The translations under genes and the position numbers were made by a program. A model generated the notes under the pieces. It saw only the letters and a program-made list of their open reading frames with translations, did no database searches and had not been told where the DNA came from. From contig CP009479.1 of NCBI GenBank assembly GCA_000965745.1, positions 320,001 through 384,000 of the forward strand: a stretch of DNA of 64,000 nt. Direction: 5' to 3'. Positions within the stretch are counted from its first letter, which is position 1. Every line of letters begins with the position of its first letter. Positions 840 to 23,758 of this stretch are shown piece by piece. Source of the stretch: an uncultured archaeon (GTDB lineage Archaea; Thermoplasmatota; Thermoplasmata; Thermoplasmatales; Thermoplasmataceae).

Positions 840-899
840 GTGATGGAATACTACAATCATATTTCATGATTTCGGTTACGTGATGAGGGCTGAGTGGAG

Positions 900-921
900 T
901 CAACTAAATTTTGACAATGTC
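900..921 (-). repeat. Probable terminal inverted repeat of the left-edge IS
   Basis: GACATTGTCAAAATTTAGTTGA on the minus strand matches GAGATTGTCAAATCCCCGTTGA at the end of the homologous transposase fragment (16128-16149). Confidence 0.6.
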
Positions 922-1627
922 CTTATTTTGGAGATGGGGAAATACGGACGATAAATTTGCTCTGTATCTTGTAATAATCAATTGGTTTTTTGAATTAACC
1001 CGTAATACACGGAAAACGTGACATAATTGGCATCTGCAAGGAAGAAGAGTTGAACTACCTTTTTTATGACTTCACAACGGCTTTTCGATGGTAGGAATCA
1101 AGTTAAGAGGAAGGGTATCAAAGCATATTCTCTGACTTGATTCTCCTTGGGGTAATAGATCGTGATAGACGACACCTGCAGATTTTTGATGAGTTAGCAC
1201 CACTTGTTCAAGAAGTGATAGGTGAATCATGACATCAGTTCAGTCAAGACAATCACTTATACTTGAGTGCCTTCTGGAGATAACCAGAGCCTCGACATTG
1301 ACAATTGAGGTTAGTAGTTAATAAATAATATTTCCAAGATATTTGAAATAAATCTGACATGTGGTAGTCTCTTTTACAACTTCCAACATAAACCTAATAC
1401 CTTAATTTTGAGACTCTTAAGTATTTAATAATATTATGAATTTGGGTTAAATTCATCCTCAACGTGACTCATCAAAATACCATTGCTATTACTAGCGGAA
1501 TTAAAAAAGCCAACCATCTAGAAGTGGGAATAAAAATGAGATTGCATTCTGTTATTGTATAGTAAGGAGATAATTAAAAATGCGAAAATAGTAATTGCGA
1601 AATCCCTAAAACAAAGGGTTTCCAAGC

Positions 1628-1674
1628 ACTCAAAAATTCAGTAAATATTTAAATATGTGTAGTAAATTTTAATC
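1628..1674 (+). promoter_or_regulatory. Leaderless archaeal promoter with upstream ACTCAAAAATT motif
   Basis: TTTAAATA at 1648-1655, 27 nt before ATG 1675. The same architecture occurs at 6409-6455 on the minus strand. Confidence 0.6.
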
Positions 1675-1857
1675 ATGAAATACCGCAAAAATAGGTATGA
1701 TGAAGGAGAGACTTGTCGGTCCACAATACTGACAGTCTCCCTCCCAAAGGAGATGCTGGCCACAATAGATGAAGCGGTACGAGTCCTTAAGACCGACCGC
1801 TCGAAGGCTGTGAGATACGCCATAGAACAGGTGTACGGGCTCATGAAAAAGGAGTGA
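1675..1857 (+). CDS. Ribbon-helix-helix (CopG-like) regulator
   Basis: ILTVSLPKEMLATIDEAV...DRSKAVRYAIE RHH pattern, directly upstream of a replication-like gene. Confidence 0.8.
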   Translation: MKYRKNRYDEGETCRSTILTVSLPKEMLATIDEAVRVLKTDRSKAVRYAIEQVYGLMKKE

Positions 1858-1864
1858 AAAAAAG

Positions 1865-3387
1865 ATGGTAGAAGGTCAAGTTAATATACCAACCACGAAT
1901 ATAAATTTTTCCGATAAGAGGCTCTGCTACCGGCTGGACAGCAAAGTAAGTCTTGCATTCGAAAAGGGATCATTCTTCAAGGTTACGGAAAGGAATGGCC
2001 AGCAGAAGATGGAGACACTTTGCTCTTATCCACTCTCGATTATAGGTCTAGTCAAGCAAGGAAATCAGTGGAGAATCAAATACAAGTTTTCGGGAGAGGA
2101 GAGAACAGACACGATTCTTACAATGGGCGAGCTTATCAGACAGCAGATGAGCCCAACATCGAACATCATGTCTTACTTCAAACAGTTCATTCATAAATTC
2201 AGAGATGACTGTGAGCGCAATGGTTTATTCGAAGTCTGGCACGACTCTGTATCGGTACAAGATGGGTTAATGTAATCGCAGTAGAGAACTTACCAGAGCA
2301 GAATGCGAAGAATATCCTACTGATTCTCAAGAAGCTTGCAGAGTTGTCAACGAACAAAGACGCATTCCTTACGAGCATGTATTACAACCTGATGGCACCT
2401 CTTAGCTTCGAGATAAGGAACAAAGGCCAGAAGTTCCCATACAGGCTTAGTTCTGGAAGGACTCATGGAGGAAAGACGACCATAGAATCTCTTTTCACGC
2501 TACAAGGGTTCAACCAAGAATTGTCGCAGAGAAAGGAGACAATCAACACAGTGAAGACAATCTTTACCTTTGGACAGCAAGTTGAGAAGTCAAGTCTTCC
2601 CTTTGTCATTGACGACATAAAGAATGAATGGCTCGAAAAATACGCTGAAGAGTTGAAGGGAGCAACTGATGGGGTCAAATTCATGGCCAGAGGGACTAAG
2701 GCACAGACGCAGAATGAGTGGCGTATGCTTGGTATGCCAGTATTTACCATGAATGCTGAGCCAGACATACCCCTTGCCCTGATGGACAGGATAATCATTA
2801 GTCGGTACACGGAGGAGCACTCGAAGAGACAGGACAAGGCAAAGTTCGAATCCTTAAAGAGGGCATTGAAACCTGGGTTCATGCTTAAGCTCATAATGGG
2901 GACCTTAGCAGGTAAGAATCTGGAGGAGATCCTCAACAATGTGCACTACAGGGCCAACAACGACAACGAGGTCAATGGACTTCTTATCAAGTACTCTGAA
3001 GGGCTCACAGTCGAACTCTGTAAAAAGTACGGGATAGAACCACTCAGCACTGGGCTTGTTCTTGAGTCAGTGGAGCAATCACTCATAGAGAGATTTTGCA
3101 CATATGTCTACACAAAAGTGAGTACCTTATCTAATTGGGACAATGCTCGTTCTCTGAAGTACTGCGAAGTTAATAAGGGCAAAGATAAGAAAGAACAATT
3201 CATCTATATCTCCTCTGAAGGGTTCAACGATTTCGTTAAGGACCACAGACTGAAGAAGATGACCATGACTGACTTCGTAAATGAGGTGAACAGTCCTGAT
3301 ATAAGGGTCAAGACAGTCTACAACCGTTCTTGGGTCTTTCTCCTTTTAAGTTGTTGTCATAGTATATCCTACAGGGATTGGTTTTAA
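1865..3387 (+). pseudogene. Plasmid/virus-type P-loop replication helicase-like protein, frameshifted near 2265
   Basis: ORFs 1865-2275 and 2344-3387 are in different frames, and the second frame is open back to at least 2260 (VIAVENLPEQNAKN...). Walker A GRTHGGKTT and Walker B FVIDD. Confidence 0.65.
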
Positions 3388-3535
3388 GACCACAATTTAC
3401 ACGCCTAACAACATTTTGTTTTATGATGTCTGTGGTGCAGATTCCTTTAAAACCTACGAATCTCTCAGGATTTCCGTCATTATAAGTAACCTTGAGTGCA
3501 ATATCCATTTTTATCGCCTCTCCTGAAGCAAAGGA

Positions 3536-4627
3536 TTATCTGAAGATGCTCGAAGTGTCCTTAGCCTTAAGCATTTCTTCAAGCGTTTCCACAAATCTAA
3601 TTCCGGGCATAAAGAAATCTGGCCCCCTCTTAATTGGCTTAAAATCTTTAATCTCTTCCCCCAGGGAAAAAAAGACAGTTTTTCCACTCGAGTAATCATC
3701 ATTATCTTCGAGTGCATCAAAACAATTCTTCCAGCTTTTGGCTATTGACATATCACCTCGTTTTATTTCTTTAATAGCGTATAAATGGGTTATTGCACTT
3801 TGTTCTGGTTCGTAGGTCGCGAGATACTTTGGTTGCCTGTTTCTCCTCAATTGGAAAAATCCATAGCCTCCCGTTTCTTCAATGAAGTTTATCCCAGTGC
3901 AGGGACTATAGGTATTAGCAGAACAAACAACTACTTCCGGAGAATTAGCAGCCTTACTGTTATTATTATCGTAGTTATATGTACCGTTTTGCTCTGCTTG
4001 TGGGCCCTGTGGGGCCAAAGTAACTTCTATGTCCAGATTATCAACTATAAAATCGGGTGAAACTTTCAATTTATCCGAAATATAATCTAATACTTGGCTT
4101 CTTATTTGTGAAAAATCTTCCTTTATAAAACTAGATAATTTGTCTCTTAGACCCTCTTGCTTTTGAATGGAATCCAGGAAGTTTGGATATGAATCTTTTG
4201 ACAGGCCAAAAAATATCTCTATGCTCTGCCCACTTACCCACCGATAAATTGGGGTACTTTTGTCTATATGGTATACTAACAACTCCCTTCCGTTATAGAG
4301 ACAACCATATTGGGCCCTGACAACCCCAATATATGAGTTTACTTGGTCAGAATAGGCTTCCAAATCATACTCCTCTGGACCTTTAGCTTCAATTACTAAG
4401 CGAGAGTTTCCATTTTCAAGAACATAATCTGGGGTGATCCAATTGCCAGAGCCCACAGGATAGGATTCCTCAATTTTTACGTCTTCAACAAGATCCCAGC
4501 CCAGTTCCTCTATCAATTTAGTGAGCACCAACTGTCTTAAGCGACTTTCTTTTCCCAATATTTCTTCACCTAGTTTTACAAGTCTTGCTACTTCCATTCT
4601 ACGTTCCATGTATTTATCCTCCCGCAC
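3536..4627 (-). CDS. HsdR_N-like PD-(D/E)xK nuclease fused to a C-terminal domain (possibly PUA/EVE-like)
   Basis: IEE...PDYVL...LVIEAK...QVNSYI...YGCLYNGRELLVY is the HsdR N-terminal signature. No helicase motor is present. Confidence 0.75.
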   Translation of the reverse strand: MREDKYMERRMEVARLVKLGEEILGKESRLRQLVLTKLIEELGWDLVEDVKIEESYPVGSGNWITPDYVLENGNSRLVIEAKGPEEYDLEAYSDQVNSYIGVVRAQYGCLYNGRELLVYHIDKSTPIYRWVSGQSIEIFFGLSKDSYPNFLDSIQKQEGLRDKLSSFIKEDFSQIRSQVLDYISDKLKVSPDFIVDNLDIEVTLAPQGPQAEQNGTYNYDNNNSKAANSPEVVVCSANTYSPCTGINFIEETGGYGFFQLRRNRQPKYLATYEPEQSAITHLYAIKEIKRGDMSIAKSWKNCFDALEDNDDYSSGKTVFFSLGEEIKDFKPIKRGPDFFMPGIRFVETLEEMLKAKDTSSIFR

Positions 4628-4820
4628 TCATTTTAGCTATGTTTTCTAGACTCATAATATCCAGCACCCACTTGTCGAAATACAAGGTATTTTTTCCGTC
4701 AGCAAATTTGCCACGAGTGTAAAGTGAGAGAAATATTGCAAGTCATTCTCATTACTCAAAAAAATAATATAAAATTTCCTATGTTTTACAAGACTTAATG
4801 AATTCAAAAACCAAATTAAA

Positions 4821-6077
4821 GATCGTGTGCATAAAGTGATGTAATTTTAAAGAGGTCCCGCAAAATTTGGAATTAGGAGGACCAAAAGATGCAGGACCAG
4901 TTGAACATGGTAGAGGAATTAATAAGCACTTTCCTGAATGACAATCAGGAAGGGAAGAAACAGCTGATCGAGTGGTTTCTGAACGAAGTCATGGACAGGG
5001 AAGCGATGGATCAGATCAGGGCGGAGTGGTATGAAAGATCTGAGCAGAGGAAAGCACACAGGAATGGCAAGAGGAAGAGATCACTGAAGACATCGGACGG
5101 CGATCTGATGCTGGAGAAGCCCCAGATACCTGAGTTTCCATTCGAAACACAGGTATTTGACCGGTACAGCAGAGTCGAGAGAGCAGTTGAATCAGCAATC
5201 CTGGAATCGTACATACAGGGTGTCTCAACAAGGAGAGTGAAGAGCATTGTTGAGACCCTTGGGATACGAAAAGTATCCCCGTCCTATGTCTCATCACTCT
5301 CCTCCGATCTGGATCAAAAGGTGAAGGAATTCCTTGAGCGTCCCATAGAAAAGGAGATCAGGTACATGTATGTGGATGCCACATACATCAAGGTACGCCA
5401 GGATTCAAGGTACAAAAGCATGGCGCTGTACATTGCTGCTGGCGTGAGAGAGGATGGATACAGGGAAATCCTGGGAGCAAGGCTTTATGACTCTGAGACA
5501 GAAATCGACTACGAATCATTCTTCGATGATCTTAAGGATCGCGGTCTGAGAGGCTTAGAGCTGGTGATATCAGATGGCCATAAGGGAATCAGGGAGGCTG
5601 TACTCCGATCTTTTCCGGGTGCATCATGGCAGTTCTGCCATGTGCATTTCATCAGGAACCTGATGAAGAAGATTCCAAAGAAAAGATGGGGGTCAGTATC
5701 ACTCATAGTGAAGGAATCACTTGAGAATCCTTCACTCATGCCTCTGGCACAGCAGGCATTGATGGATCATGGAATGGACAGGGCTGCTGAGATGTACGAG
5801 CGATGGTCGGATTCACTGTACAACTATCAGTCCTGTCCACAGCAGCACTGGCGCAGGATAAGAACAACAAACATGATGGAGCGTCTCAATTACGAGATCA
5901 AGCGTCGTACAAAGAAAGTGGGTGCGTTTCCATCTGAGAAAGCGTTGATCAGGTTGGCAGGAGCGGTGTTGATGGACGTGAATGAGGAGTGGATCACTGG
6001 GCGAAAGTATTTGAGAATGGAGGAGTTGCACGGTGGGGGAGTCCCTCTTTAATTTACAGCACTTGGTGCACATGACC
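4821..6077 (+). mobile_element. IS256-family insertion sequence
   Basis: Imperfect TIRs: GATCGTGTGCATAAAGTGATGTAA at 4821 versus GGTCATGTGCACCAAGTGCTGTAA (reverse complement ending 6077). No target-site duplication. Confidence 0.9.
4889..6052 (+). CDS. IS256 transposase
   Basis: YVDATY, VISDGHKG, WQFCHVHF and RTTNMMERLN motifs. Confidence 0.95.
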   Translation: MQDQLNMVEELISTFLNDNQEGKKQLIEWFLNEVMDREAMDQIRAEWYERSEQRKAHRNGKRKRSLKTSDGDLMLEKPQIPEFPFETQVFDRYSRVERAVESAILESYIQGVSTRRVKSIVETLGIRKVSPSYVSSLSSDLDQKVKEFLERPIEKEIRYMYVDATYIKVRQDSRYKSMALYIAAGVREDGYREILGARLYDSETEIDYESFFDDLKDRGLRGLELVISDGHKGIREAVLRSFPGASWQFCHVHFIRNLMKKIPKKRWGSVSLIVKESLENPSLMPLAQQALMDHGMDRAAEMYERWSDSLYNYQSCPQQHWRRIRTTNMMERLNYEIKRRTKKVGAFPSEKALIRLAGAVLMDVNEEWITGRKYLRMEELHGGGVPL

Positions 6078-6408
6078 TGCGAGATAGGTATTCCACTATG
6101 TTTTGTGGTGAACTCAATATCAAGCCCTTAAAGTATTTATTGAGGTAGTTTTCAAGGCTCTTTTGGTAGTTTTTCTCGTATCTATTGGCCTTCATCCAGG
6201 TCATAAAACCTTCAGACATATTCACAACTAATTGGACTTGTGGTTTCACTTCATTTGAAGAGGGTTGACCAAATGGTGTAAAGCCACCATTGAAAAACTC
6301 ATTCAATCTTGCGTTCACCCATTGGTATAAGTTGATGCCAAAATCCTGTGCTTTTTCAACTAAATCCCCTCTTAGATTTAGTGTGGTAATTTTATTGCCT
6401 CTTTCCAT
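6078..6408 (-). pseudogene. N-terminal fragment of an archaeal tyrosine integrase with RHH/CcdA-like N-terminus, truncated by IS256
   Basis: TTLNLRGDLVEKAQDFGINL (RHH-like) followed by FMTWMK...YQKSLENYLNKYF...SPQNIVEYL, which resembles a core-binding domain. The frame runs into the IS256 end. Confidence 0.55.
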
Positions 6409-6642
6409 ATTACTTATTATCTCGCAGTATTTAAAACGTTACAAAATTTTTGAGTTCCTTTATTGTGGGAAAATGCCTATTTGATGGGGTGAGAGAAAGA
6501 ATATAAGAAAAATTATATTTGCAATAAAGCAAGTTTGACAGATACAGAGCACCAAACAAGTTTGGATAACGAACTTATTTTACCGCAATAATAAATAAAT
6601 ACCACTAAATTGTATTCTTTTGGCTACAAAGGGAATGCGGAA

Positions 6643-8394
6643 ATGACTTTATCTGAAGACATCGAGGAATTATATTTATCAGAAATACTCAAAATGACTG
6701 GAAGGGAGGAACGTTTAACTAGAAATCCTTTACTAACTGAATACCAAAAACAGGGTTTTAAAAATGTACTAGCTTCATTGATAGATAAGAATGCTCAAAA
6801 TAGGGATTATCTAGCTAAATGTGATTTATTTAATAGAAGTCTTTTAATTTTAGGGATAAAACCTGTAAGAAACTCTTTTTTTGAAATAGTATTTGAAAAT
6901 ACAGATTTTTCTAACATTGACCAAGTAAAATTAGCAGTAAAAAGGTTCAGAGTCATTGCCATGTTAGAGTATGGTAGTTTTAGATTCGCTTACAAGATTC
7001 TAAAATTTGGTGAAGACAAACTTAGAGATATCACTCTGAAGGAAATATATGAAACATATTTTCCCAAAGGTGAGAAGTTAAAGGAGAGGAACAAGAAATA
7101 TAATGATAAAGTGGAACCAATTGGATTGAGGAACATTCCTCCAAGCACATTATTCGTATTGGGGTACTTGGCAGGTGAGCAGTCGAAGAGAGTCAATGAT
7201 GCAAGAGTCAAGCTCAAAGAAATACTAGAAGATGCTCTCACCAAGCAGAACATGAAGAATTTTGCCGATTTGAAAAAACTTGCAGAGAAGCACAATGAGA
7301 AAAATTTGAACCTTCTGGCAACTAATGCGGAAATTTCTGGTATGGAACGGTTATTGCTCCCTTCTTTCTATGCACCAAACGAAACTTATTCTGATGTGAT
7401 AAGGGGCATTCTAAAGGACTGCATCTCAATAGGTCAAGATGAATTTGATCAAGCGAGGAGGAACGGAAGTTTGAATACCACTACATATCTTGGATTGCAG
7501 GAAATTGATGCTTATCTAGCAACTTCTATGAGAGACCCGCTTCACTTTACCACAAATCATGCGTTCATCAAATCTTTGTTCTCAAATCCTCAATTAAAAG
7601 ATTGGAAAATTCATTATTTCGACCCTACCCAATCATACATGGAGAATAGAATAGAGAAAGGTTTAGTAGAGTCCTTAATGATTAAACGGTCTAAAGTAAC
7701 GATTTACAATGCTCAAGAATCTGATACCTTCGGGAAAGATTCAGAAGCTGCAGTAGCACTAGCTCAAGGTAAAGAAGTGATCGTATATGTTAGCAGGCTA
7801 TTCTCCAAATCACCTGAATTTAAGGAATTATATGAGATAATAGATAAAGCTACTGAATTCGATACACCTGATGAACTTGTAAATATCTTCGTTGAAAGGA
7901 AATTTTTGACCTCGGAAGAGGCTAAACAACTTTTAGTTCCTGGGAAATCTAAGGGAGATGCAATAGAACGGGTGTCTAGTGAGTATTCAAACAAGATCTT
8001 ATCAAAATTTGATGAACTCCAAATTGCAACTGAACTTATGTATTATGGTTATGATCCAGAATGGGAAAAGGGCTATCCTGCAAGTAATGCTTCTAAACAT
8101 ATTTCAAAGTTAGAGAGGAGGGCACTAACATTTAAAGATGTTCACCCATTATCATTTCAGGTATCGGCACTAGATGGTGTCGCTAGGGGCGTTATCGTCA
8201 CACGTTCTGTTGATGATACTGCCCATGTACTCAAAGGACTCCTTGTGGGAAATCTAAGTTATGATATTATAGATAATGATTCAAATGCTATTCTTTTGGA
8301 GCAAAAAACTCGTTCTCCTATGAGGGTGGTCACAAAAGAGCCAACCTTAACAACTTCATTCTGGAGTGAGTTTTCGCGTGAAACCCGAAATTGA
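6643..8394 (+). CDS. Large uncharacterised protein with a nucleoside 2-deoxyribosyltransferase (NDT/TIR-like) domain
   Basis: YLATSMR...YFDPTQ...MIKRSKVTIY...DTFGKDSEAAVALAQGKEVIVY. AT-rich; ATG 6643 preferred over TTG 6610. Confidence 0.7.
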   Translation: MTLSEDIEELYLSEILKMTGREERLTRNPLLTEYQKQGFKNVLASLIDKNAQNRDYLAKCDLFNRSLLILGIKPVRNSFFEIVFENTDFSNIDQVKLAVKRFRVIAMLEYGSFRFAYKILKFGEDKLRDITLKEIYETYFPKGEKLKERNKKYNDKVEPIGLRNIPPSTLFVLGYLAGEQSKRVNDARVKLKEILEDALTKQNMKNFADLKKLAEKHNEKNLNLLATNAEISGMERLLLPSFYAPNETYSDVIRGILKDCISIGQDEFDQARRNGSLNTTTYLGLQEIDAYLATSMRDPLHFTTNHAFIKSLFSNPQLKDWKIHYFDPTQSYMENRIEKGLVESLMIKRSKVTIYNAQESDTFGKDSEAAVALAQGKEVIVYVSRLFSKSPEFKELYEIIDKATEFDTPDELVNIFVERKFLTSEEAKQLLVPGKSKGDAIERVSSEYSNKILSKFDELQIATELMYYGYDPEWEKGYPASNASKHISKLERRALTFKDVHPLSFQVSALDGVARGVIVTRSVDDTAHVLKGLLVGNLSYDIIDNDSNAILLEQKTRSPMRVVTKEPTLTTSFWSEFSRETRN

Positions 8395-8613
8395 AGCACA
8401 ACTATATGAATTCACAATCACCTAAATTATAGAAACTCTCAAAGGGTATTTAGGGGTCCAAAACACTGAATGTTATTTACACGCAAAGAGAAGGATACCT
8501 TTCCAAATTATCAAAGTAAATTTTTCAATCATTTCCTCTATCAGTTTGATAACTCATTGCCATGTAATACTCATTGGACAAAACAGTCAGAAATGCTTCC
8601 AGAAGTAAGTCGG

Positions 8614-8800
8614 ACTCTTAATCCATAGGTCGGGGGTTCGAACCCCTCCGGACCCGCTAAATACCTGTTTGCTTCTGTGAGCATTTTCATTAGTAGAATT
8701 TTTTAAGACGGCAGAAAGGTATCCATCTTTCAGTTTTGAATGTGGGGGAACTTAGGATTATGCCAGCTTGAAAGTAATTCTTGTATTACGGGTAATACAG
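8614..8800 (+). repeat. att-like repeat copy 1: 3' half of tRNA-Lys(CTT) (8614-8658) plus 142-bp conserved arm
   Basis: ACTCTTAATCCATAGGTCGGGGGTTCGAACCCC...GGACCCGCT contains the anticodon loop, T-arm and acceptor 3' strand but no D-arm. Ungapped match to 11269-11455. Confidence 0.9.
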
Positions 8801-8941
8801 ATTGGAAGGCAAATATTTATGAGAACTTCTCACTAATTTATTCAACCATAGAAAATAACGGTTCAAATATCGACTGAGGCCCTACAACCGACGTCTTACA
8901 GTCACTTATTCCACTGACTTGGAAAGACCTAATATTATACA

Positions 8942-8957
8942 CACACATATATGTGTG
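8942..8957. promoter_or_regulatory. Perfect 16-bp palindrome, probable VapBC operator
   Basis: CACACATATATGTGTG immediately upstream of ATG 8963. Confidence 0.65.
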
Positions 8958-8962
8958 ATATC

Positions 8963-9202
8963 ATGGGAAGCAAAAACATTTCTATCTCCGACGAAGCTTA
9001 TTCCAGACTGAAAAAGTTCAAGGGAAAGAATGAGAGTTTCACAGACGTGATAAACAGGTTGACAAACAAAGCCACTCTGCTGGACCTCAGGGGAACACTA
9101 ACACAAGATGAGGCAGAATCTATGCTGAAAAATATAAACGAAGCGAGGAAGTTGAGCGGGAAAAGATACCAGAACATTAGCGAGATGCTGGAGCATCAAT
9201 GA
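8963..9202 (+). CDS. vapB: VapB-type antitoxin
   Basis: MGSKNISISDEAYSRLKKFKGKNESFTDVINRL; overlaps the PIN gene (ATGA). Confidence 0.9.
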   Translation: MGSKNISISDEAYSRLKKFKGKNESFTDVINRLTNKATLLDLRGTLTQDEAESMLKNINEARKLSGKRYQNISEMLEHQ

Positions 9203-9591
9203 TTGCTGATACCACATTCCTCATAGACATAATGAGGGGAGACCGTTCAGCCATAGAAAAGGGAGAGGAACTGGAAAGAGATGGGGTGCAGGTCAACATA
9301 ACTACAGTTTCCGTATTTGAACTATACGTGGGGCTTAACTCAAGTATCAGGCCAATAGAGGAGAAGAACAAAATCGACAAGGTTCTTGGAAATATTGTCG
9401 TTCACCACTTCGATTTTGATGCTGCAAGAGAGGCCGGAGAAATATTCGCAGACAAAAAACGCAGGGAGCTAACCATTGATCCAGAAGACGCTATGATAGC
9501 AGGGATATGCATCTCCAATGAAGAACCCATTCTGACTAGAAATGTCAACCATTTCTCAAACATTGGCAGACTAACAGTTGAGTCTTATTGA
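9199..9591 (+). CDS. vapC: VapC PIN-domain toxin
   Basis: IADTTFLID...SVFELYVG...EDAMIAG...ILTRNVNHF. Confidence 0.95.
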   Translation: MIADTTFLIDIMRGDRSAIEKGEELERDGVQVNITTVSVFELYVGLNSSIRPIEEKNKIDKVLGNIVVHHFDFDAAREAGEIFADKKRRELTIDPEDAMIAGICISNEEPILTRNVNHFSNIGRLTVESY

Positions 9592-9771
9592 ATTATGGTG
9601 ATATCAGTTTGACTCTGTTTCTTCAAACTTTGGTACCCTACTGCAAGGGGCTTTAATCACATGGACTGAATATCAGACAAAGGGCCTGACGGGAACTGAA
9701 TACAATTACCCCAGTTACGTATATCCTACAAGCAATCAGTACGACAGTTTCCATATAGCATATGAGTTGTC

Positions 9772-10314
9772 ATGACCTCTAATAAACCTAAATTCCTTCA
9801 CCTTCTATTTTTCTTTTTTGCTCTAGCATCAGTTGCCTTTATTCTCTATTATCAGGGTTATGTACTACGCCCCGTTTATTCCTCAGATTACTTCATCTTT
9901 TCGACACCCCGTATACTCAAGCTGTCGTTCCTATTGCCCTCAATACTGACTTTGTCGTTTTATCTTGAAATCTACTTGGGACTGTATGCATCTTTATTGA
10001 TTCTCTTGAAACATCATAGAGTAACATTCTTTTCGTTCTTCGTATCATTAATTTTGATTGATGTGATTACGTACCATCAATTTGAATATTTCTGGGGAAC
10101 TGCCTCGGGATATCAGGGTTTCCCACAAGGAGCGGGGTCTTGGCTAGTCCAGTATTATCATATATCTGGATACTATGCAGCCATTTTCAACGCTTCGTTT
10201 ATGATATCCATAGGAACTGCACTGGCCGGACTTGCTATTGGAATTAAATTGTTAATAGATAAATATAGAAAGGCACACACTGAGAAAGTCCCTGAAAAAT
10301 CTGGAAAAACATAA
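9772..10314 (+). CDS. Hypothetical membrane protein
   Basis: About four hydrophobic segments, 180 aa. Confidence 0.7.
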   Translation: MTSNKPKFLHLLFFFFALASVAFILYYQGYVLRPVYSSDYFIFSTPRILKLSFLLPSILTLSFYLEIYLGLYASLLILLKHHRVTFFSFFVSLILIDVITYHQFEYFWGTASGYQGFPQGAGSWLVQYYHISGYYAAIFNASFMISIGTALAGLAIGIKLLIDKYRKAHTEKVPEKSGKT

Positions 10315-10457
10315 GAAAACGACAACAATCGGAGAATACGGAGAGTTGAGACACTCTATTCTGTTAAGACAGATTGATTACGGCAAGGACCTTCTGTTGA
10401 AATTTTCGTTTTACTACATGAAAAATGCTTAATACGGCTAACCGTATATACGCCTGT

Positions 10458-10742
10458 ATGGTTAAGAAGAAAATAACCGTATCAATAGACAAACCTGTTG
10501 TTGACAGCGCTAAGTTGGCACTGTTGAAAAAAGGGAAAACAATGAGCGATTACATCGAAAGAACACTGAGATCACTCTCTACTTCAAGTATACTTAATGA
10601 TATTTGTGAAGAGCTCAACTTAAATTGCAGATATGTGACCGGAGAAGAAGTGGAGAGGCAAAGGCCCGATCTTACCGGGAAGGTACTGTCTGAAATGGAG
10701 GTCAGGGAGATGCGGGATGAGCGTAGCTCGCGTTTATCTTGA
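10458..10742 (+). CDS. RHH antitoxin
   Basis: MVKKKITVSIDKPVVDSAK...TMSDYIE. Inverted repeat ATACGG-CTAA-CCGTAT at 10432-10447 upstream. Confidence 0.8.
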   Translation: MVKKKITVSIDKPVVDSAKLALLKKGKTMSDYIERTLRSLSTSSILNDICEELNLNCRYVTGEEVERQRPDLTGKVLSEMEVREMRDERSSRLS

Positions 10743-11157
10743 TACCAGTATATTGGTTAAGAGATACATAAAAGAGGCTGACAGCGAAATAGCTGATGCT
10801 GTTTTCCATCAGGCACAGCGTGGAGAAGCAGTTATCTGTTCCTCAGAAATCAATCTTGGAGAAGCGGCAGTTGTTTTCGATAAATACTCAAGAAAAGTCG
10901 GGATTGATGCACGAGACCGCTTACAGACCATGTTGAGTGAGTTGAATTCTCTGGAAAGATCTTCTGCTTTTGAAATCTATCCGGTTAGTAGCCATATAAT
11001 CAGGAAATCAATTAGTACTTTACTGGAGCATCATATTTACATTGTGGATGCGGTTCAACTTGAAACGTGTGTTGAGGCAGAAGGAACAGTTTTCTTCACC
11101 GCAGACAGGGAATTAAAAGCAGTGGCTGAAAGAATTGGTTTAAAAACACAATTGTGA
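10717..11157 (+). CDS. vapC: VapC PIN-domain toxin
   Basis: VYLDTSILVKRY...E...DAVQLET...FFTADREL. Confidence 0.9.
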   Translation: MSVARVYLDTSILVKRYIKEADSEIADAVFHQAQRGEAVICSSEINLGEAAVVFDKYSRKVGIDARDRLQTMLSELNSLERSSAFEIYPVSSHIIRKSISTLLEHHIYIVDAVQLETCVEAEGTVFFTADRELKAVAERIGLKTQL

Positions 11158-11268
11158 TCTCCCGGAATAGTACATTGCAAGCGTTTTCAAAAGACCACCA
11201 TTTCTTGGAAATTAGTAAGTTTCACAGAGCACTTGTAATAATGAGGCCACAGACTTAGGTGCTGAGGT

Positions 11269-11455
11269 ACTCTTAATCCATAGGTCGGGGGTTCGAACCC
11301 CCTCGGACCCGCTTAATCCCAGTTTACTTGTGGGAGGACTTTCATTATGGGATTTTTGTGAGCTGGCAGAAAGGTATCCGTCTTTCACTTTGTATTGCGG
11401 GAGAATTTAGGATTAGGCTGGTTTGAATGTAATTTTTGTATTACAGGTAATACAG
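11269..11455 (+). repeat. att-like repeat copy 2: 3' half of tRNA-Lys(CTT) (11269-11313) plus conserved arm
   Basis: Constant 2655-bp offset to copy 1 at both ends; 2 mismatches in the 45-bp tRNA part. Confidence 0.9.
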
Positions 11456-11538
11456 GCAATATAATTTCGATGTGAAATTTTCGCGGAGTAATGGAAGTAG
11501 TTTGCCCATAATCTTTAATCCTATCAGAATAAACAAAT

Positions 11539-12039
11539 CTAAAGCGATTTCAGCATTGTTATTGCTGACTCACGAAATCCGGCTTTAGAGTAAAGGTTTC
11601 TAGCCACTGTATTAAGCGAATATACGTTTAGGAAAATTCTTGTTGCACCTTTGTTCTTGGCAAATGCCTCAATCTCAACTGTTGAATTCTTTACATAACC
11701 CTTTCCCCTTCGGTCTTCACCAATAAAAATATCCCAAAGGTATGCCTCTGTTGATCTCCTTTTCATTAGTTGCAACCAAAAAGAACCGATGCTATTGCTT
11801 TCCTTTACAGTGTGCATAAAATAGTGTCCTGGGGCCTTTATTCCATTAGTGACAAACTTTGTCAATTGCTGTTCCGCTTCTTGAAATGTAATGTCTGTGT
11901 CCATCATGCCTGCTTCCTGCATATGACCCATGCCTAAATTTACTATACGCTTCCAGTATTGAGGAAATTCATTCTCTCGAATCGGACTAAAATGAGCTAT
12001 GCAGGAATTATATTCGGAATATTCATAAATTTTGTCCAT
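11539..12039 (-). CDS. GNAT acetyltransferase
   Basis: YLWDIFIGEDRRGKGY...LNVYSLNTVARNLYSKAGF. Confidence 0.85.
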   Translation of the reverse strand: MDKIYEYSEYNSCIAHFSPIRENEFPQYWKRIVNLGMGHMQEAGMMDTDITFQEAEQQLTKFVTNGIKAPGHYFMHTVKESNSIGSFWLQLMKRRSTEAYLWDIFIGEDRRGKGYVKNSTVEIEAFAKNKGATRIFLNVYSLNTVARNLYSKAGFRESAITMLKSL

Positions 12040-12221
12040 TGTTCTGACTATAGTCTGTTAAAACCTGTCCAACCCCAGAGAATAACGGGTTAAATATAGA
12101 CTGTGCATTAATCTACTTGGTAAAAAGCAGCCTAAGAGAGGACCTATGAATAAAAGAGTCACATTTTTCTAGAATTTTATTACCCGAGCAAATTGTTACA
12201 TTTATGATTTTATACAGTGAT

Positions 12222-12536
12222 TTATGAGTTAAGGCTCTCTAACTTTTCCATGAGTTCTTCCAAAACAATGTCTTTCTTCTCTTTGCTCAAATGAAAAACC
12301 GTCTTGATTATAGTGTCACTCGTTATTGTGAAGATATAGTTCAGTTTGATTACACTATCTTGGGCAGCCCCTTCTCCCTTTGTGATTAGAACTCCTTTCA
12401 TTCGTAAATTTGTAGATATGCCCGCTATCACTATATTACCAAGTTCTTCAAACAACACCAGGGCTGGTCGAATTTTTGAGCCTTCGTTATCTGCGAAACG
12501 AACCCTGGTGATGATTACGTCTCCAGCTTTAGGCAT
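12222..12536 (-). CDS. mazF: MazF/PemK-family toxin
   Basis: GDVIITRVRFADNEGSKIRPALVL. Confidence 0.85.
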   Translation of the reverse strand: MPKAGDVIITRVRFADNEGSKIRPALVLFEELGNIVIAGISTNLRMKGVLITKGEGAAQDSVIKLNYIFTITSDTIIKTVFHLSKEKKDIVLEELMEKLESLNS

Positions 12537-12750
12537 TTTCCCAACCGCTGTAGTCTCCCTCGCTCCAGAGCTCTTTCATTTTAGTCTCCTGGGCCTTCTG
12601 TACAAAAATACCCAACTCTTGAGTTTCCTTTGCTTCAGTAATCAGCCTCAGTATAATCTCATTGTATGTTTCTCTAGGGTATCTTTTAACATTTTTGAGT
12701 GCCTGCACAACAGACTTCTTAAGCTGTATGGTTGTTATCTCTTCCTTCAC
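12529..12750 (-). CDS. Antitoxin partner of MazF
   Basis: TTIQLKKSVVQALK...RETYNEIILRL with acidic C-terminus LWSEGDYSGW; overlaps the toxin start. Confidence 0.8.
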   Translation of the reverse strand: MKEEITTIQLKKSVVQALKNVKRYPRETYNEIILRLITEAKETQELGIFVQKAQETKMKELWSEGDYSGWENA

Positions 12751-13638: not shown

Positions 13639-14394
13639 TCATTTCTCTGATGCAGTTTTCAAATAAGCCTTGAGGATCGAAAGTGTGGCAACGCAACCCC
13701 CGAAGAGGGAGAGAGTTTCGGATGAATCCGGGAATATGTCAAGTCGATTTGAAAGATAGTCCATTGCCTTCCTGTTAGCCTCAATCACTGCATCCTTTGC
13801 GCCGCTCATGTCATTTTTCAAAGCGCCATTTTCTGCGAGTTTTTCTATCCTTTCTTCTATCGATTTTCCTTCGACCTGATTCAATGCGTAATCAATAATC
13901 TTCCCAAGTACCAGGGCGCCTCCCAGGAACTGTCCGTTTTCAATTGCTTCTTTTGCCACCTCAATGTTCCTTCCATAACTGCTGTCGAGACCCTCACAGA
14001 TCTCTCTTGCTTCAGAGGCGAATTTGGCCAGACTGTTGTTCTCCTCTGTGGATAAGTTTGAGTTTGGTGCCCCCAGATAACCTAGGATCTTGTCACAGTC
14101 GACCATTATTTCCCTGAGGTAGCCCCTCACGGGGAGAGATTGGGGAACCTGATCAATCAGCAGATGCTCATCTGAAAGCTGCCCAATAGCAGAGTTGAAG
14201 TGGGCCAGCAGGGTTTTTGCCTGGGACAGGTAGTCCCTGAGGACCTCCAGATACCGGCTCCTGAGAGCCAGACTGCCACCCGAATTCTTGATCAGCCCAT
14301 GATCAACCCACGATATCCCGTCTCTTATGCTGGCAGCGTGCTCTTTGATGCTGCTGAACTCGTTGATTAGAGACCTTGTTTTTGCTTTATCCAC
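13639..14394 (-). CDS. Hypothetical protein with HEPN-like C-terminal helical domain
   Basis: AKEAIENGQFLGGALVLGKIIDY...EERIEKL pattern; the canonical RxxxxH is absent. Confidence 0.55.
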   Translation of the reverse strand: MDKAKTRSLINEFSSIKEHAASIRDGISWVDHGLIKNSGGSLALRSRYLEVLRDYLSQAKTLLAHFNSAIGQLSDEHLLIDQVPQSLPVRGYLREIMVDCDKILGYLGAPNSNLSTEENNSLAKFASEAREICEGLDSSYGRNIEVAKEAIENGQFLGGALVLGKIIDYALNQVEGKSIEERIEKLAENGALKNDMSGAKDAVIEANRKAMDYLSNRLDIFPDSSETLSLFGGCVATLSILKAYLKTASEK

Positions 14395-14764
14395 AGATCA
14401 ACCTGTTGGTATCAGCCAAATGGTATATCAAGAGTGGCACGTTGTTTTGATATTTCGCGAGTTCCTTCCCAACCGGTGCTTCGTGAATTTTATAATGCAA
14501 AGTGGTTTAGGTTGCAGCAAGGCAACACCCCATTATTGCACAGAAAGAGCGTTTCAATTGGCCGGCAGATCTGAATTCCGTCCATACGCCTGTGCATGGC
14601 GAGTATTCCTACAGAGAGCAATATGTGTGTAATTACGACTCCCTAATATATACAGCCACTCAATAAAAGTGATCCAATAAAGATAATCTGGGGAGGCAGG
14701 GGGTGAGGAGGTAAGGGATTAATTCTTGTGCGCGCATTTTTTCCATTTTTTGTAAGTTCCGTGG

Positions 14765-15356
14765 TTATTTCACTATCTTCATTTGCTTATTCTCTAAGAC
14801 CTCATCCGATTTTCTCACTTTTCCAAGAGCGTAAAACAGCCCCAAGAACACAATAGTCCATACCGAAAAGTCAATTAAGAATAACCTGAGAGACAGGATC
14901 AACACTGCGGAAAAAGTGTCTCCATACTCTAGAAAGTGAAACGGAAATCCTAATGAGTAAAATGCATTCAAGTTGATATAGCCTGGATAGCGTATAGGAG
15001 CTTCTGGGCTCAAAAGGGTAACAATTGCACCAAAAATTATTCCCTTAACTAACTATCACTTTTACATTTTTTATGTCCCGATTCTCAATGACAGTTAAGC
15101 AGCCTATCAGATATATGGTGGACCAGAAAAATATAGATAGGAACAGGCTTAATATTTTGACGTACGGGTTGAGGACCTGATAAGGGGGAAGGTCGAAGAA
15201 ATATGTAAGGTAAATCTTCGGGTATCCCGAGGTAAGATTGACTGGAGAATGTATTATTAAAGTGCTAATGACATACGAACTAATAGAAGCGAAGAACAGG
15301 AAAGAAAAAACTTCAAATTTTGAGGAGAATAGGCTATTTAAGCACATGTCGATCAT
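14765..15356 (-). CDS. Two small membrane ORFs (15045-15356, 14765-15013), possibly one frameshifted gene
   Basis: Both are hydrophobic with similar GYP/GFP loops; the second ORF lacks a good start. Confidence 0.45.
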
Positions 15357-15405
15357 CTAGCTGTTCTGAAACGTTATAGTGAAACTCTGATCGTCAGTTA
15401 ACACT

Positions 15406-15720
15406 CTAACTCCCCAAGATTTTGGGGAATAACTTCATCCCAATGACTTCTTCGATATCAGCGGCTTTCTTTGTCACCTCTGAGAGAATTCTCCTGGCTC
15501 CCATTGTTATCATATAGACCTTTGAAAGCTCCATCAGGACCCCGTTCACTGAATACTTTCCATTCATGGCTCTGTCCTTCAGGATGTTCAGGATCCTGTA
15601 CCTGATATACAGGGCAACCAGGATGGTGGGGAAATACCCCCGCACCGCATCGTCGTCCTGCAGGTATGTCTTGTCCTCCTCAAGGTCGTTCTTCATGATG
15701 TCGAATGCCTCCTCCACTTC
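15406..15720 (-). mobile_element. IS1634-like transposase C-terminal fragment
   Basis: EEAFDIMKNDLEEDKTYLQDDDAVRGYFPTILVAL...YSVNGVLMELSKV. Confidence 0.75.
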
Positions 15721-16149
15721 CTCAAGGATCTCAGGAGGAAGGTGCGAGATTCAGGAAGGAAGGATGAACTCGCTTCAGCACTGGATCTCATGAACTTCGC
15801 GTTCTTACAGACACCAGAGAATCTGGAAAAGCTGGGAAAGAATTCCAAGCCTGTAAAGAGGAAGGTCTCCGGAAAATCCGAGAAGGAGGCTACATTCATC
15901 CTCCTTGACCTTGTAAGGGGTCTCTATTCCGGCGATCCTCTCATAGGCAAATTCCTGAGGCAGGTGAGGAAGAACAGGGGGAGGTATTCCGGTACCTTGA
16001 AGATCCAATGGTCAACAGGACAAACAATGTTGCAGAGCACCATTTCTCTGTGAGATCTGAACTCCTGAAGATGAGGTTCAAGACCGATGATGGCCTGCTC
16101 ATGACATCATACTGGTACCACAGACTATCAACGGGGATTTGACAATCTC
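15721..16149 (+). mobile_element. C-terminal fragment of a Mutator/IS256-like transposase with terminal IR
   Basis: ASALDLMNFAFLQ resembles DMAKRLVKYMF of the left-edge transposase. Frameshifted RTNNVAEHHFSVRSELLKMRFKT. IR at 16128-16149. Confidence 0.65.
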
Positions 16150-16319
16150 GATTCCAGGCAAAGATTTTGACAATAATCCTGTTGCGCACATTTACGGTAT
16201 ACAAAAGAGGTGAACATTCTGAGGAAATCTCAGCAGCTCGCAGTTAGCGGAGGAATATTTGTGTTCTGCTATAGAGCCGTAGGGTGAGCATTTCGCTGGC
16301 AATGCATGTCATTAATCTT

Positions 16320-16760
16320 GTAATTGGATTAATGAGAAGCCCGGCCTCGTCGTGAAGAGAAAGAACAATGCAATCTCGAAGAGGCTGCACAGGATGGGTC
16401 GCATGATCCTCATGGGCAATTCGGAGATGCAGTGGAACGACATGCTTGACCTGTACCGCTCACGGGAGAGGGTGGAGAAAGGATTCCGAGACATGAAATC
16501 AGATCTTGAGGCACTTCCAATGGGCACGCACACAGATGAGACAATGCATGGATATCTCCTGGTGCAGTTTGTTGCACTCATCCTGGATCTGAGATGAGGA
16601 GGAGGATGCACGAGATGCTCATGGAGCTGAGAAAGCTCAGGGCGGTAAAGCAGGACGGCTCAAGGTTCCTCACATATATCTCAAAGAAACAGAGGGAAAT
16701 ATTTCAGGGCATGGGAATCAAGGAAGAATCCATTGTTATTAGCTGAGGCGGGAATTCAGG
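16320..16760 (+). mobile_element. IS1634-like transposase 3' fragment
   Basis: YRSRERVEKGFRDMKSDL...HTDETMHGYLLVQFVALIL, internal stop, ends ...GCGGGAATTCAGG. Confidence 0.75.
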
Positions 16761-16852
16761 ATAGTGATTATTTACGCCAGTGTTGTCAACTATTAACTCC
16801 TGATACTCTTCTATCTCAGACAGTTAGCGAGGAAAAAGTGAGAACTATTGCC

Positions 16853-17233
16853 TCACATTCCTCTTTCCTCTAAAAGCTCTTCTAATGCTTCTTTTCCAAA
16901 GAGTTCCTGGTATATTGATAGAAAACCAAGCAGTTTATCGGCAAGAGTTCTTTTGGTTTTTTCTTTATCGTTTACAAATTTTTTGTGTGCATTTTTGCCC
17001 TTTGGTGTAAGTTCATAATATACTCGGCCTGAGGCCCCATCTCTTGTAGATACGACAAGCCCACTATTTTCCATCCGTCTCAGAATTGGATAAACCGTTC
17101 CAAAGCTTATCTTGATGTGCCCCCTAGCCATTTTTTCTATTTGACCAGACAGTTCGTACCCATAGACCGGGCCATCTTTCATTAGCCACAGAAAGAGTGG
17201 CTGGTATATCTTAGAGGAGAATCCCTTAATCAA
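16853..17233 (-). CDS. PadR-family transcriptional regulator
   Basis: GPVYGYEL...ISFGTVYPILRRME..G...YYELTPKG. Confidence 0.9.
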   Translation of the reverse strand: MIKGFSSKIYQPLFLWLMKDGPVYGYELSGQIEKMARGHIKISFGTVYPILRRMENSGLVVSTRDGASGRVYYELTPKGKNAHKKFVNDKEKTKRTLADKLLGFLSIYQELFGKEALEELLEERGM

Positions 17234-17255
17234 GTTGATGACACCTCATTTCTGT

Positions 17256-17318
17256 TATATCGAATAGATATATTCATATATCGCGTAAGAATTGTTTCAG
17301 ATAGTATCGTATCGATAC
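17256..17318. promoter_or_regulatory. Candidate PadR operators (TATCG-N3-CGATA)
   Basis: TATATCG-AAT-AGATATA (17256-17272) and GTATCG-TAT-CGATAC (17304-17318) in the divergent promoter. Confidence 0.5.
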
Positions 17319-17344
17319 AATCAAAAGAAAGTGGATGAGATAGG

Positions 17345-18322
17345 ATGCGAATCATAACGCTTGAAGAACACTATGCCACTGGCGCACTGATGGCGAGCCA
17401 GCGACGAAACATGCAACAAGGTTCGAGCATGCCCATAGGATGGGACCCATCCAAGTTCATGAACAGGCTTTTAGACATCGGAGATTCGCGAATCACTGAA
17501 ATGGACGATGCTGGCATCGATGTGCAGGTTCTTTCCTCGGTTGGTGTAGAAGATATTGAGAATGAAGAGAAGGCATTGGAACTTGCGTGCTCGTCAAATG
17601 ATTATCTCGCGCTTGCAATCAAAAAACATCCTGCCCGTTTTGGAGGTTTCGCCATCCTACCAATGTCGACGCCACAAAAAGCAGCAGATGAGCTCGAACG
17701 AACTGTTAAGGAATATGGATTCAAGGGAGCCATGATTCTTGGCCACAGTCGTGGGCGCTATCTTGACGATAGATTCTTCTGGCCAGTACTTGAACGCGCC
17801 CAAGACCTTGATGTCCCACTCTACCTCCACCCCGCGGTTCCCCCGGACGCTGTAGTCAAAGCTAGCTATGTGGGCAATTATTCAGGAGAAGTGGCGAACA
17901 TACTTGCTGGCCCGGGATGGGGGTGGCACATCGATACTGCAACTCACATTCTTCGAATAATTCTGAGCGGAGCGTTTGATACTTATCCAAGACTTCAGCT
18001 AATCATTGGGCATCTAGGTGAAGCGCTTCCCTTTATGATGCCGAGAACTGATCATATGCTACCGGCCAAAATAACCAAGTTGAAACGCCCTGTTGGAGCA
18101 TACCTGCGCGAGAACGTTAACTATACTGTCAGCGGATTCAACTACACTGCCTCATTTCTGGACCTGTTTCTCCAGGTAGGATCTGATAGAATCATGTTTT
18201 CTACAGATTACCCTATTTGGTCCATGAAAGAAGCGCACGACTTTCTGGATCGATTACCCATAAGTCCGGGTGACAAAGAGCGAATCGCGCATAGTAACGC
18301 AGAGCGTCTACTGCAAATTTAG
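17345..18322 (+). CDS. Amidohydrolase_2 family (ACMSD/LigW-like non-oxidative decarboxylase)
   Basis: ITLEEH, LYLHP, GHLGEALPF and FSTDYP motifs. Confidence 0.9.
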   Translation: MRIITLEEHYATGALMASQRRNMQQGSSMPIGWDPSKFMNRLLDIGDSRITEMDDAGIDVQVLSSVGVEDIENEEKALELACSSNDYLALAIKKHPARFGGFAILPMSTPQKAADELERTVKEYGFKGAMILGHSRGRYLDDRFFWPVLERAQDLDVPLYLHPAVPPDAVVKASYVGNYSGEVANILAGPGWGWHIDTATHILRIILSGAFDTYPRLQLIIGHLGEALPFMMPRTDHMLPAKITKLKRPVGAYLRENVNYTVSGFNYTASFLDLFLQVGSDRIMFSTDYPIWSMKEAHDFLDRLPISPGDKERIAHSNAERLLQI

Positions 18323-18416
18323 GACTGTGATTTTATATGTGGAAAATAACTGAATTAAAGACAAGCCTTGTGGGAAAAGAGCCCGATAGGATGATCAACA
18401 GCCATGGGAGGTCTCT

Positions 18417-19307
18417 TTGATGATCCCCAAAAGATTTGATTATTACTCGCCCACCTCACTTCAGGAGGCTATCCAGCTACTTCATGAGAATACCGAGGCC
18501 AAGGTCCTGGCTGGAGGCCAAAGTCTCCTGCCAATGATGAAGCTTAGGATGTTTGAACCAAGCGCTCTCATCGATATATCCAGGCTTACAGACCTTTCCT
18601 ACATTCGAGATGAAGGTGAGTATCTAGCGATTGGCTCTCTGACAACTCACGATGTCGTCGAGCATGATGAAACAATCAAAGATAGGCTTACACTCCTCTA
18701 CGAAGCGGTCTACCGACTTGGCGACAAGCAGGTTCGGAACCTTGGGACGATTGGAGGGTCAGTCTGTCATGCAGATCCCGCAGCAGACCTCCCAACCGCA
18801 CTGCTTGTAGCGGACGTGAGTTTTGTAATGGAAGGAAAGAGCGGGAAACGGGTGGTGCCTGCGCGAGATTTCTTCCTAGACTTCTATACCACCGCTCTTG
18901 CGCATGACGAGATACTGACAGAGATACAAGTTCCATACCTCCCCCGGCGGTCGGGATCAGCTTACATAAAGCACAGCCTCCGAGAGGCTGATTTTGCAAT
19001 TGCAAACGTAGGCACAATTGTTACAATTGAAGAAGACGGAAAGACGTGCAGAGAAGCAAGAATAGGGCTGGGAACTGTCGGGACGACACCTCTGAGGTCT
19101 TCTCCGGCAGAGCAGTACCTGAAGGGGAGAGAATTTGACGAGACGAGTATTGCCGAGGCCGCGGAGAGATCGATCGAAGGTGTTGACCCACCGTCTGATG
19201 TACATGGAAGTGGAGAATACAGGTTGAAAATGATAAAGGTCATTACTAAGAGGGCACTTCGGCTGGCCTCGAGGAGGGCGGGAGCCAGGGGTGAGATTGC
19301 AAGATGA
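18417..19307 (+). CDS. Xanthine dehydrogenase family FAD subunit (CoxM/CutM-like)
   Basis: AGGQSLLPMMKLR, RNLGTIGGS..HADPAAD. Confidence 0.93.
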   Translation: MMIPKRFDYYSPTSLQEAIQLLHENTEAKVLAGGQSLLPMMKLRMFEPSALIDISRLTDLSYIRDEGEYLAIGSLTTHDVVEHDETIKDRLTLLYEAVYRLGDKQVRNLGTIGGSVCHADPAADLPTALLVADVSFVMEGKSGKRVVPARDFFLDFYTTALAHDEILTEIQVPYLPRRSGSAYIKHSLREADFAIANVGTIVTIEEDGKTCREARIGLGTVGTTPLRSSPAEQYLKGREFDETSIAEAAERSIEGVDPPSDVHGSGEYRLKMIKVITKRALRLASRRAGARGEIAR

Positions 19308-23663: not shown

Positions 23664-23720
23664 GGAGATTTTATTTCCTTACACCTTGAAGAAGCATATT
23701 ATGGGAGTTTCTCCCGGAAG

Positions 23721-23734: not shown

Positions 23735-23758
23735 CATTAGTAGTTAGGTTTAATACCC

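Follow-up and report, generated by a model that had tools for sequence, protein, structure and literature searches.

Why does a 64,000-nucleotide stretch of an archaeal genome carry two 3' halves of a tRNA-Lys(CTT) gene, each continued by the same kind of DNA, with toxin-antitoxin (TA) genes between and behind them? The stretch, referred to here as the window, comprises positions 320,001 to 384,000 of contig CP009479.1 (assembly GCA_000965745.1). The genome, that of a Thermoplasmataceae-type archaeon, is a single 2.23-Mb contig, and the relatives that were found are metagenome-assembled genomes (MAGs) from acid mines. Coordinates are those of the window, in which position 1 is genome position 320,001, unless they are marked as genome coordinates. 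On balance, we favor the answer that the repeats are attachment (att)-type junctions and that integrase-less cassettes accreted there through a tyrosine integrase acting in trans, much as bacterial cis-mobilizable elements (CIMEs) do.

A preliminary description of the window had reported two ungapped 187-bp direct repeats 2655 bp apart, each starting at the anticodon loop of tRNA-Lys(CTT) and extending well past the tRNA end. A repeat search of the window reproduced both direct copies, at 8614-8800 and 11269-11455, 2655 nt apart and without gaps, as one repeat family. The copies are 82% identical (154/187), and the next-best ungapped match to copy 1 in the 64-kb window reaches 73/187. Both begin at the anticodon stem-loop, with the core GGACTCTTAATCC at 8612-8624 in copy 1 and GTACTCTTAATCC, which has one mismatch, at 11267-11279 in copy 2, and both extend about 140 nt beyond the tRNA end. 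Against the resident tRNA-Lys(CTT), copy 2 matches positions 32-75 at 100% (44/44), and copy 1 is 95.7% identical over positions 30-75, with two bases differing. ARAGORN and Rfam detected only tRNA-Phe and tRNA-Gln in the window, with no intact tRNA-Lys beside either copy. Copy 1 is 250 kb away from the single intact tRNA-Lys(CTT) gene (genome 78610-78684). The units are also not limited to the two first described. Five tRNA-Lys units, each in plus-strand orientation, are present genome-wide. One is the intact gene, whose extension has diverged, and the others are at genome 312926, 328614, 331269, and 1186719. The stack had been placed at tRNA-Lys; it is instead part of a low-GC insertion that is specific to this genome and is separated from that gene by 233-250 kb.

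It is conceivable that the units are functional RNA genes, either 3' halves of split tRNAs or sources of tRNA-derived small RNAs, and their nearly perfect tRNA part, 44/44 in copy 2, would suit such a role. However, an intact tRNA-Lys(CTT) gene is present and no orphan tRNA-Lys 5' half was found, in contrast to split tRNA genes of the Nanoarchaeum type, in which a separate gene for the 5' half has a complementary leader. Furthermore, the junctions have no Rfam match even at an E value of 1, and the DNA upstream of the halves is either an element arm or unrelated sequence. We therefore regard a functional RNA as extremely improbable.

The 187-nt unit is not the full module. Junctions have the order P arm (about 130 nt), core, tRNA half with its own flank, and P' arm (about 180 nt). 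In the window pair a P arm is found at copy 1 only, where it occupies 8482-8613 (132 nt) and ends ...CTTCCAGAAGTAAGTC just before the core. The core at 8612-8624, the putative crossover region of this junction (junction 2, 8482-8880), lies in the tRNA-Lys(CTT) anticodon stem-loop. It is followed by the tRNA-Lys 3' half, without a 5' half (8614-8660), by a trailer with T-runs (8661 to about 8706), and by the P' arm (8707-8880; extended P' profile match, E 5e-40). Junction 3 (11267-11522) consists of the core and 3' half of copy 2 (11267-11312) and a trailer with P' arm (11313-11522) that matches P' profile positions 1-168 (E 8e-32). All of these elements are on the plus strand.

By nhmmer the P arm has three copies in the genome, one at copy 1, one at genome 1186583, and a minus-strand one at genome 1599588. 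It always terminates ...CAGAAGTAAGTC right against an anticodon stem. The possibility that it is coding sequence was considered for a 52-aa open reading frame (ORF) at 8470-8628 and rejected; the 16 copies of the arm lack 3-nt codon periodicity, so that the arm is non-coding. BLAST found the P arm in 15 of the 169 genomes of the order and the P' arm in 17 of the 169, with matches confined to one family and patchily distributed over 7-8 genera, 8 in the case of the P arm. In relatives the fusion partners of the P arm are Lys 3' halves, the reverse complements of Leu(TAG) or Leu(TAA) 5' halves, and, in one case, a Glu-like half. Between the tRNA half and P' is a flank specific to the tRNA, a T-rich trailer for Lys and a promoter for Leu, whereas the P' arm is common to Lys-type and Leu-type junctions and has nine copies in this genome.

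Whatever DNA lies upstream, homology stops at the same anticodon-stem base. Because every junction examined begins at this base, the repeats are best understood as att-type junctions at the anticodon stem, as the preliminary description had proposed. The cores, read from the P arm, are GGACTCTTAATCC for Lys, GGACCCTAAATCC for Leu(TAG) antisense, GGATCTTAAGTCC for Leu(TAA) antisense, and GGACTTTCAATCC for the Glu-like half. It is because these cores read alike from the P arm that a single arm family is found with a Lys 3' half and with Leu 5' halves. The pattern GGAYYYTNARTCC fits only 5 of the 44 tRNAs of the genome in one or other orientation, including Lys(CTT) sense and Leu(TAG) antisense, and the core as read from the P arm thus offers a testable rule for the choice of target. 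Among Thermococcales, pTN3-like integrases are described as using a 5' half (PMC8371274).

The repeats might also have arisen without any site-specific step, by segmental duplication or through homologous recombination among tRNA-like repeats. The units (190-400 nt) are long enough for homologous recombination, which has been discussed as a route of module exchange between tandem archaeal elements (PMC8371274). However, the DNA between the two copies is not itself duplicated, the break always falls at one anticodon-stem base beside unrelated upstream DNA, and one hybrid core, described below, unites two tRNA types with no more than about 9 of 13 bases in common. Such an origin is therefore highly improbable.

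The P' arm of copy 1 has GAAAGG/CTTTCA blocks, a palindrome, GTATTAC-GGG-TAATAC, and an end, AAAATAACGGTTCAAATA, that resembles a B recognition element (BRE) and TATA box. GTAATAC heptads are a feature of P', and among 29 non-identical copies that were aligned the well-kept ones end AAAATAACGGTTTAAATA about 23 nt ahead of the first start codon (ATG). The motif and its spacing suggest that the end of P' is an archaeal BRE/TATA promoter element facing the cargo. A sigma-70 promoter scan was also run and is uninformative for an archaeon.

Congener G002 is collinear with this genome up to genome 311248, and collinearity resumes at genome 333842, in a 251-aa gene, and again at tRNA-Phe. The repeats consequently lie within a genome-specific 22.4-kb insertion (genome 311249-333638) that is missing from G002. 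The insertion has a GC content of 39.9%, whereas the whole genome has 46.4% and the flanks have 49-51%. Its right limit, as judged from synteny and GC content, is marked by the 251-aa gene (13639-14394, minus strand), the first that is shared with G002. The stack inside the insertion has three junctions and three cargo segments of 15.3 kb, about 2.4 kb, and about 2.1 kb. Junction 1, the leftmost, is outside the window at genome 311391. Its GGACTCTTAATCC core is interrupted by a 1.5-kb insertion sequence (IS; genome 311402-312925) that has terminal inverted repeats CCTTAACTCTT, a 458-aa DDE transposase, and a duplicated CTTAAT. The remainder of the tRNA half resumes at genome 312926, 15.7 kb upstream of copy 1, and rejoining the flanks without the IS restores the tRNA-Lys sequence.

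The gene content previously named for segments 2 and 3, two VapBC pairs and a membrane gene followed by GNAT and MazEF, was correct by Pfam. VapBC#1 consists of VapB (8951-9202) and a VapC/PIN toxin (9199-9591; PF02697 and PF01850), and VapBC#2 consists of an antitoxin-like ORF (10425-10742) and a PIN toxin (10717-11157; PF01850), all on the plus strand. Both loci have the architecture of a VapBC pair, a small antitoxin gene overlapping or abutting a gene for a PIN-domain toxin (8951-9591 and 10425-11157). Between them, also on the plus strand, is an ORF for a 180-aa multi-pass hydrophobic, presumably membrane, protein (9772-10314). Behind junction 3, segment 3 has genes for a GNAT acetyltransferase (11539-12039), MazF (12222-12536), and a VapB-like antitoxin (12529-12750) on the minus strand, with a weak relic of a P' end at 12064-12105 (plus strand, E 0.016 in a 24-kb search). 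A search of the 2.65-kb interval with the P' profile for decayed junctions gave nothing above noise at about 10.4 kb.

Small integrase-less intervals with the same arms are found elsewhere in this genome and in several genera. If units of this kind always belonged to large integrase-encoding elements, as the preliminary description recognized they might, such intervals would not be expected; instead, they span 1-4.6 kb, the shortest being 1.05 kb. At genome 1599.5 kb the P arm is fused to a reverse-complement tRNA-Leu(TAG) 5' half with its promoter flank. The intact tRNA-Leu(TAG) gene lies 1.05 kb away, and the cassette in between (genome 1599457-1600504) contains only a gene pair, for proteins of 74 and 113 aa, that is a TA pair. 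In relative G129 two Lys junctions enclose 1.39 kb with one ORF. Relative G018 has intervals of about 1.15 and 1.9 kb and, on contig C59, three Lys halves in 4.6 kb behind tRNA-Val rather than tRNA-Lys. Positions 2027-3950 of metagenome contig L144 (OFHJ01001491.1), from an independent sample, hold a mixed Lys/Leu stack. It has a complete junction of P arm, Lys half, and P' and, 1.7 kb farther on, a terminal Leu-type junction, in which a reverse-complement tRNA-Leu(CAG/TAG) 5' half abuts GC-rich DNA.

Cassette number and order vary among relatives, as had been predicted. At tRNA-Leu(TAA), cassettes A (VapBC) and B (ArsR/ACR3) are ordered A-B in this genome and B-A in congener G001, and the cassettes share 76-78% identity between the congeners, compared with 66% in the neighboring backbone. 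At tRNA-Leu(TAG), G000 and G003 have the TA cassette in first place; in G018 it comes second, behind an extra cassette of 1.15 kb. The P arm at genome 1186583 clusters with Leu(TAA)-type arms (support 0.90) but joins a Lys half via the hybrid core GAATTCTTAATCC, as expected if a Lys-type cassette had recombined into a Leu(TAA) stack. Two other genera carry VapBC#1 together with the P' end (8818-9598) at 87-88% identity, whereas congener backbones are 66-76% identical.

Other orphan tRNA halves in the genome have upstream DNA that differs from the P arm. Two tRNA-Thr(CGT) 3' halves are located 57 nt apart, 2.5 kb behind the gene (genome 1091350-1093996), with a third at genome 269147-269189, and a tRNA-Leu(CAG) 3' half is found 2.4 kb behind its gene (genome 2068864-2071346).

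No PF00589 match was found between the junctions, in agreement with the preliminary description, or anywhere in genome 311-334 kb; the nearest is at 24106-24642, beside tRNA-Phe. Nor was a PF00589 integrase found on or near junction-bearing stretches in this genome or in the 10 relatives scanned. Integrases whose last codons lie antisense on a tRNA-Lys 3' half are present in G018 (contig C33) and G014 (contig C7), as 341-aa proteins that are 75% identical to each other, and as a truncated relic in G010. The nearest homologue of the tRNA-Lys integrase in the genome studied here is 40% identical and is at tRNA-Pro. The stack is probably immobile and inactive today, because it is ectopic, in a low-GC insertion, and because the genome lacks any close homologue of the relatives' tRNA-Lys-type integrase.

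Searches for a master element gave tRNA matches only in plasmids (BLAST), one probable chance match in a viral collection, and, among genome contigs, known Thermoplasmata MAGs and about 30 chance bacterial matches. Scans of metagenomes gave one 6.8-kb contig, which is without an integrase. The idea that the repeat arm itself is an integrase relic was considered and is not supported. The tRNA-Lys integrase of G018 matches the minus strand of copy 1 in tblastn, with a score that comes from the tRNA-encoded tail; the frames hold stop codons, and a profile of the C-terminal tail without the tRNA-coded part detects no arm (six-frame search, E < 30). The genome also encodes three paralogous tyrosine recombinases of 437-441 aa with long C-terminal extensions (genome 897118, 1109174, and 1502849), none of them beside a tRNA gene, and recombinases of similar size occur in G001, G018, G124, and G129. 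Short tyrosine recombinases (about 205-230 aa), with at least 8 copies in G123 and 4 in G018 on many contigs, look like a separate multicopy element.

One possibility is that the cassettes are moved by host XerA or another chromosomal enzyme. Bacteria are known to have integrase-less elements that depend on the Xer system of the host, and integrative mobile elements exploiting Xer (IMEX) resemble the cassettes in lacking their own recombinase. Two junction-bearing relatives, G166 and G093, show just a Xer-like recombinase of about 285 aa and fragments. However, G093 is only 89% complete, IMEX integrate at dif whereas the sites here are tRNA-derived, and an 11-6-11 dif-like symmetry is not visible by eye at the core. 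The junctions are in tRNA anticodon loops, the classical target of element-encoded integrases (PMC8371274). A chromosomal recombinase is thus an improbable agent.

The trans-acting tyrosine integrase that we favor would act on a circular cassette. The circle would comprise a core fitting GGAYYYTNARTCC, a replacement tRNA half that brings its own trailer or promoter, the P' arm of about 180 nt, one to three genes, and often the P arm of about 130 nt. P' would end in the BRE/TATA-like promoter directed towards the cargo, usually a TA pair. Supplied in trans, the integrase would carry out strand exchange in an anticodon loop, either that of a tRNA gene or that of a junction already in place. The half brought by the cassette would rebuild the tRNA and the displaced half would remain as the next junction, so that cassettes would pile up. 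The same arms would serve tRNA-Lys(CTT) in the sense orientation, with a 3' half carried, and tRNA-Leu(TAG) and tRNA-Leu(TAA) in antisense, with a 5' half carried. In this scheme we infer the catalysis by an integrase, its action in trans, the circular intermediates, and the promoter activity of P'.

Several observations weigh against this reading. There is no clean empty site in congener G002, which has 1.3 kb of unrelated DNA at that point. The stack is unattached to any tRNA gene. Junction 3 has no P arm, as is also true of several junctions in relatives, and the promoter end is missing from its P', which points toward a minus-strand gene. No integrase tied to the P or P' arms was found, and neither arm was found in the tRNA-Lys integrase elements of G018 and G014. 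Conservation of P' may reflect gene expression rather than recombination, because P' ends in a promoter-like motif. Finally, the interval of about 2.65 kb, previously suggested to be mobilizable as a circle, is a mosaic rather than one conserved unit, because its parts occur separately elsewhere. The two VapBC modules occur apart from each other, VapBC#2 (10423-11157) being present alone, with an identity of about 71% (84% in G124), in some 45 family genomes, and the 180-aa gene (9772-10314) is absent at the DNA level from the family genomes searched.

Some of these features would be expected if the stack were a decay remnant, in which tandem full-size integrase elements lost their integrases and most of their cargo, leaving att junctions and addictive TA genes as debris. 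This is the main alternative, although we consider it unlikely. The island has no integrase, it contains two IS elements, of which one interrupts a core, and the DNA between the repeats is a mosaic. Junction 3 could have lost its P arm together with the last part of its P'. Such decay does happen, because G010 holds a truncated integrase beside tRNA-Lys. However, decay would not readily account for small intervals with both arms intact in several genera, for the swapped cassette order between congeners, for the hybrid Lys/Leu junctions, or for identity between genera that exceeds backbone identity within a genus, and no integrase is near any junction-bearing contig in the 10 relatives scanned.

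The accretion of integrase-less cassettes in trans has its closest parallel in CIMEs and in tandem site-specific accretion at att sites, as described for ICESt1/ICESt3-type elements of streptococci (reviews PMC5704250 and PMC7563491). As in CIMEs, gene blocks bounded by att sites, here breaking at the same anticodon-stem base in all junctions, are stacked at one site without integrase or transfer genes, and their mobility is presumed to come from the integrase of a related element. Scans with Pfam, PF00589, PADLOC, and NCBIfam found no integrase or mobility genes within the cassettes. A possible partner is represented by the tRNA-Lys-overlapping integrases of G018, G014, and G010 (a relic), with elements in G018 and G014 that lack the arms. 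Unlike CIMEs, the cassettes are archaeal, smaller (1-3 kb), and mostly TA pairs, with no partner element identified, and they bring a tRNA half and about 300 nt of arms, one arm family serving several tRNAs in either orientation.

Archaeal elements of the SSV, pNOB8, and pTN3-like types share with the cassettes recombination at the anticodon loop and duplication of a tRNA half, which is a 5' half in the pTN3-like elements as it is in some cassettes (PMC8371274). Here, too, direct repeats of a tRNA half form the ends, and integrase genes that overlap a tRNA gene are present in relatives. The cassettes differ from those elements in having no tyrosine integrase of their own, either as an intact gene or as intN and intC parts. 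The orders that this work lists for tRNA targeting do not include Thermoplasmatales, and integrase-less cassettes are not described there (PMC8371274).

The stack is not an integron, although the preliminary description had likened it to an integron cassette array. Integrons and chromosomal superintegrons also are ordered stacks of small cassettes that include many TA pairs and vary between relatives. However, there is no IntI, attI, or attC here. The junctions are tRNA-Lys halves with direct-repeat arms rather than attC hairpins, and the recombination site is a tRNA anticodon stem-loop. Whereas integron cassettes are promoterless and depend on a common Pc promoter, the cassettes of this family seem, from their sequence, to bring their own.

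The right part of segment 1, the 15.3-kb cargo block that starts outside the window at genome 313139, occupies 1-8481. Pfam, PADLOC, and NCBIfam identified in this segment SIR2-like, HSDR_N-like, and helix-turn-helix (HTH) genes and an IS256-family transposase (4889-6052), which are followed by a 594-aa ORF (6610-8394). The 594-aa ORF was evaluated as an unusual recombinase and rejected, with zero matches in Pfam, NCBIfam, PADLOC, and the PDB and no integrase signal. Its nearest Atlas clusters are unnamed bacterial proteins, and weak structural leads point to nucleoside 2-deoxyribosyltransferase-like domains; it may be defense cargo.

Farther to the right, tRNA-Phe (27240-27312, minus strand) has a 13-nt copy of its 3' end, TGCCGTGAGCCGG, 3.5 kb away at 23722-23734. 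The region from 23722 to 27312 is probably a small integrase-bearing element, because a 251-aa tyrosine integrase (about 24004-24756) sits between the tRNA gene and this copy of its 3' end. The whole stretch 14459-27239 is missing from congener G002. The rRNA genes are unlinked, as is usual for Thermoplasmatales, with the 23S gene (35487-38406) first and the 16S gene (47220-48689) about 9 kb away.

The route by which the cassettes may have accumulated is known in outline from bacterial CIMEs, and no archaeal description of it was found in PMC8371274 or in the titles and abstracts returned by literature searches. For acidophilic archaea, a genomic-island survey from 2025 reports tRNA-flanked islands with TA genes but not this structure. 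We tentatively extend the trans-mobilization of integrase-less cassettes to the whole family, a possibility about which we are less confident than about cassette accretion at this locus. Thermoplasmataceae might possess a gene-capture system in which promoter-bearing, integrase-less TA and defense cassettes are exchanged by one clade of trans-acting recombinases among tRNA anticodon-loop sites that fit GGAYYYTNARTCC read in either orientation, a 3' half being carried for tRNA-Lys or a 5' half for tRNA-Leu, with junctions seeding stacks away from tRNA genes. In archaea such a capture system would be a functional analogue of integrons, made of different components. If the cassettes move as proposed for this locus, assembly breaks at tRNA halves and orphan tRNA halves far from their genes would be explained, and these acidophilic archaea would trade TA and defense genes as 1-3-kb units via tRNA-derived sites, without a recombinase in the cassette.

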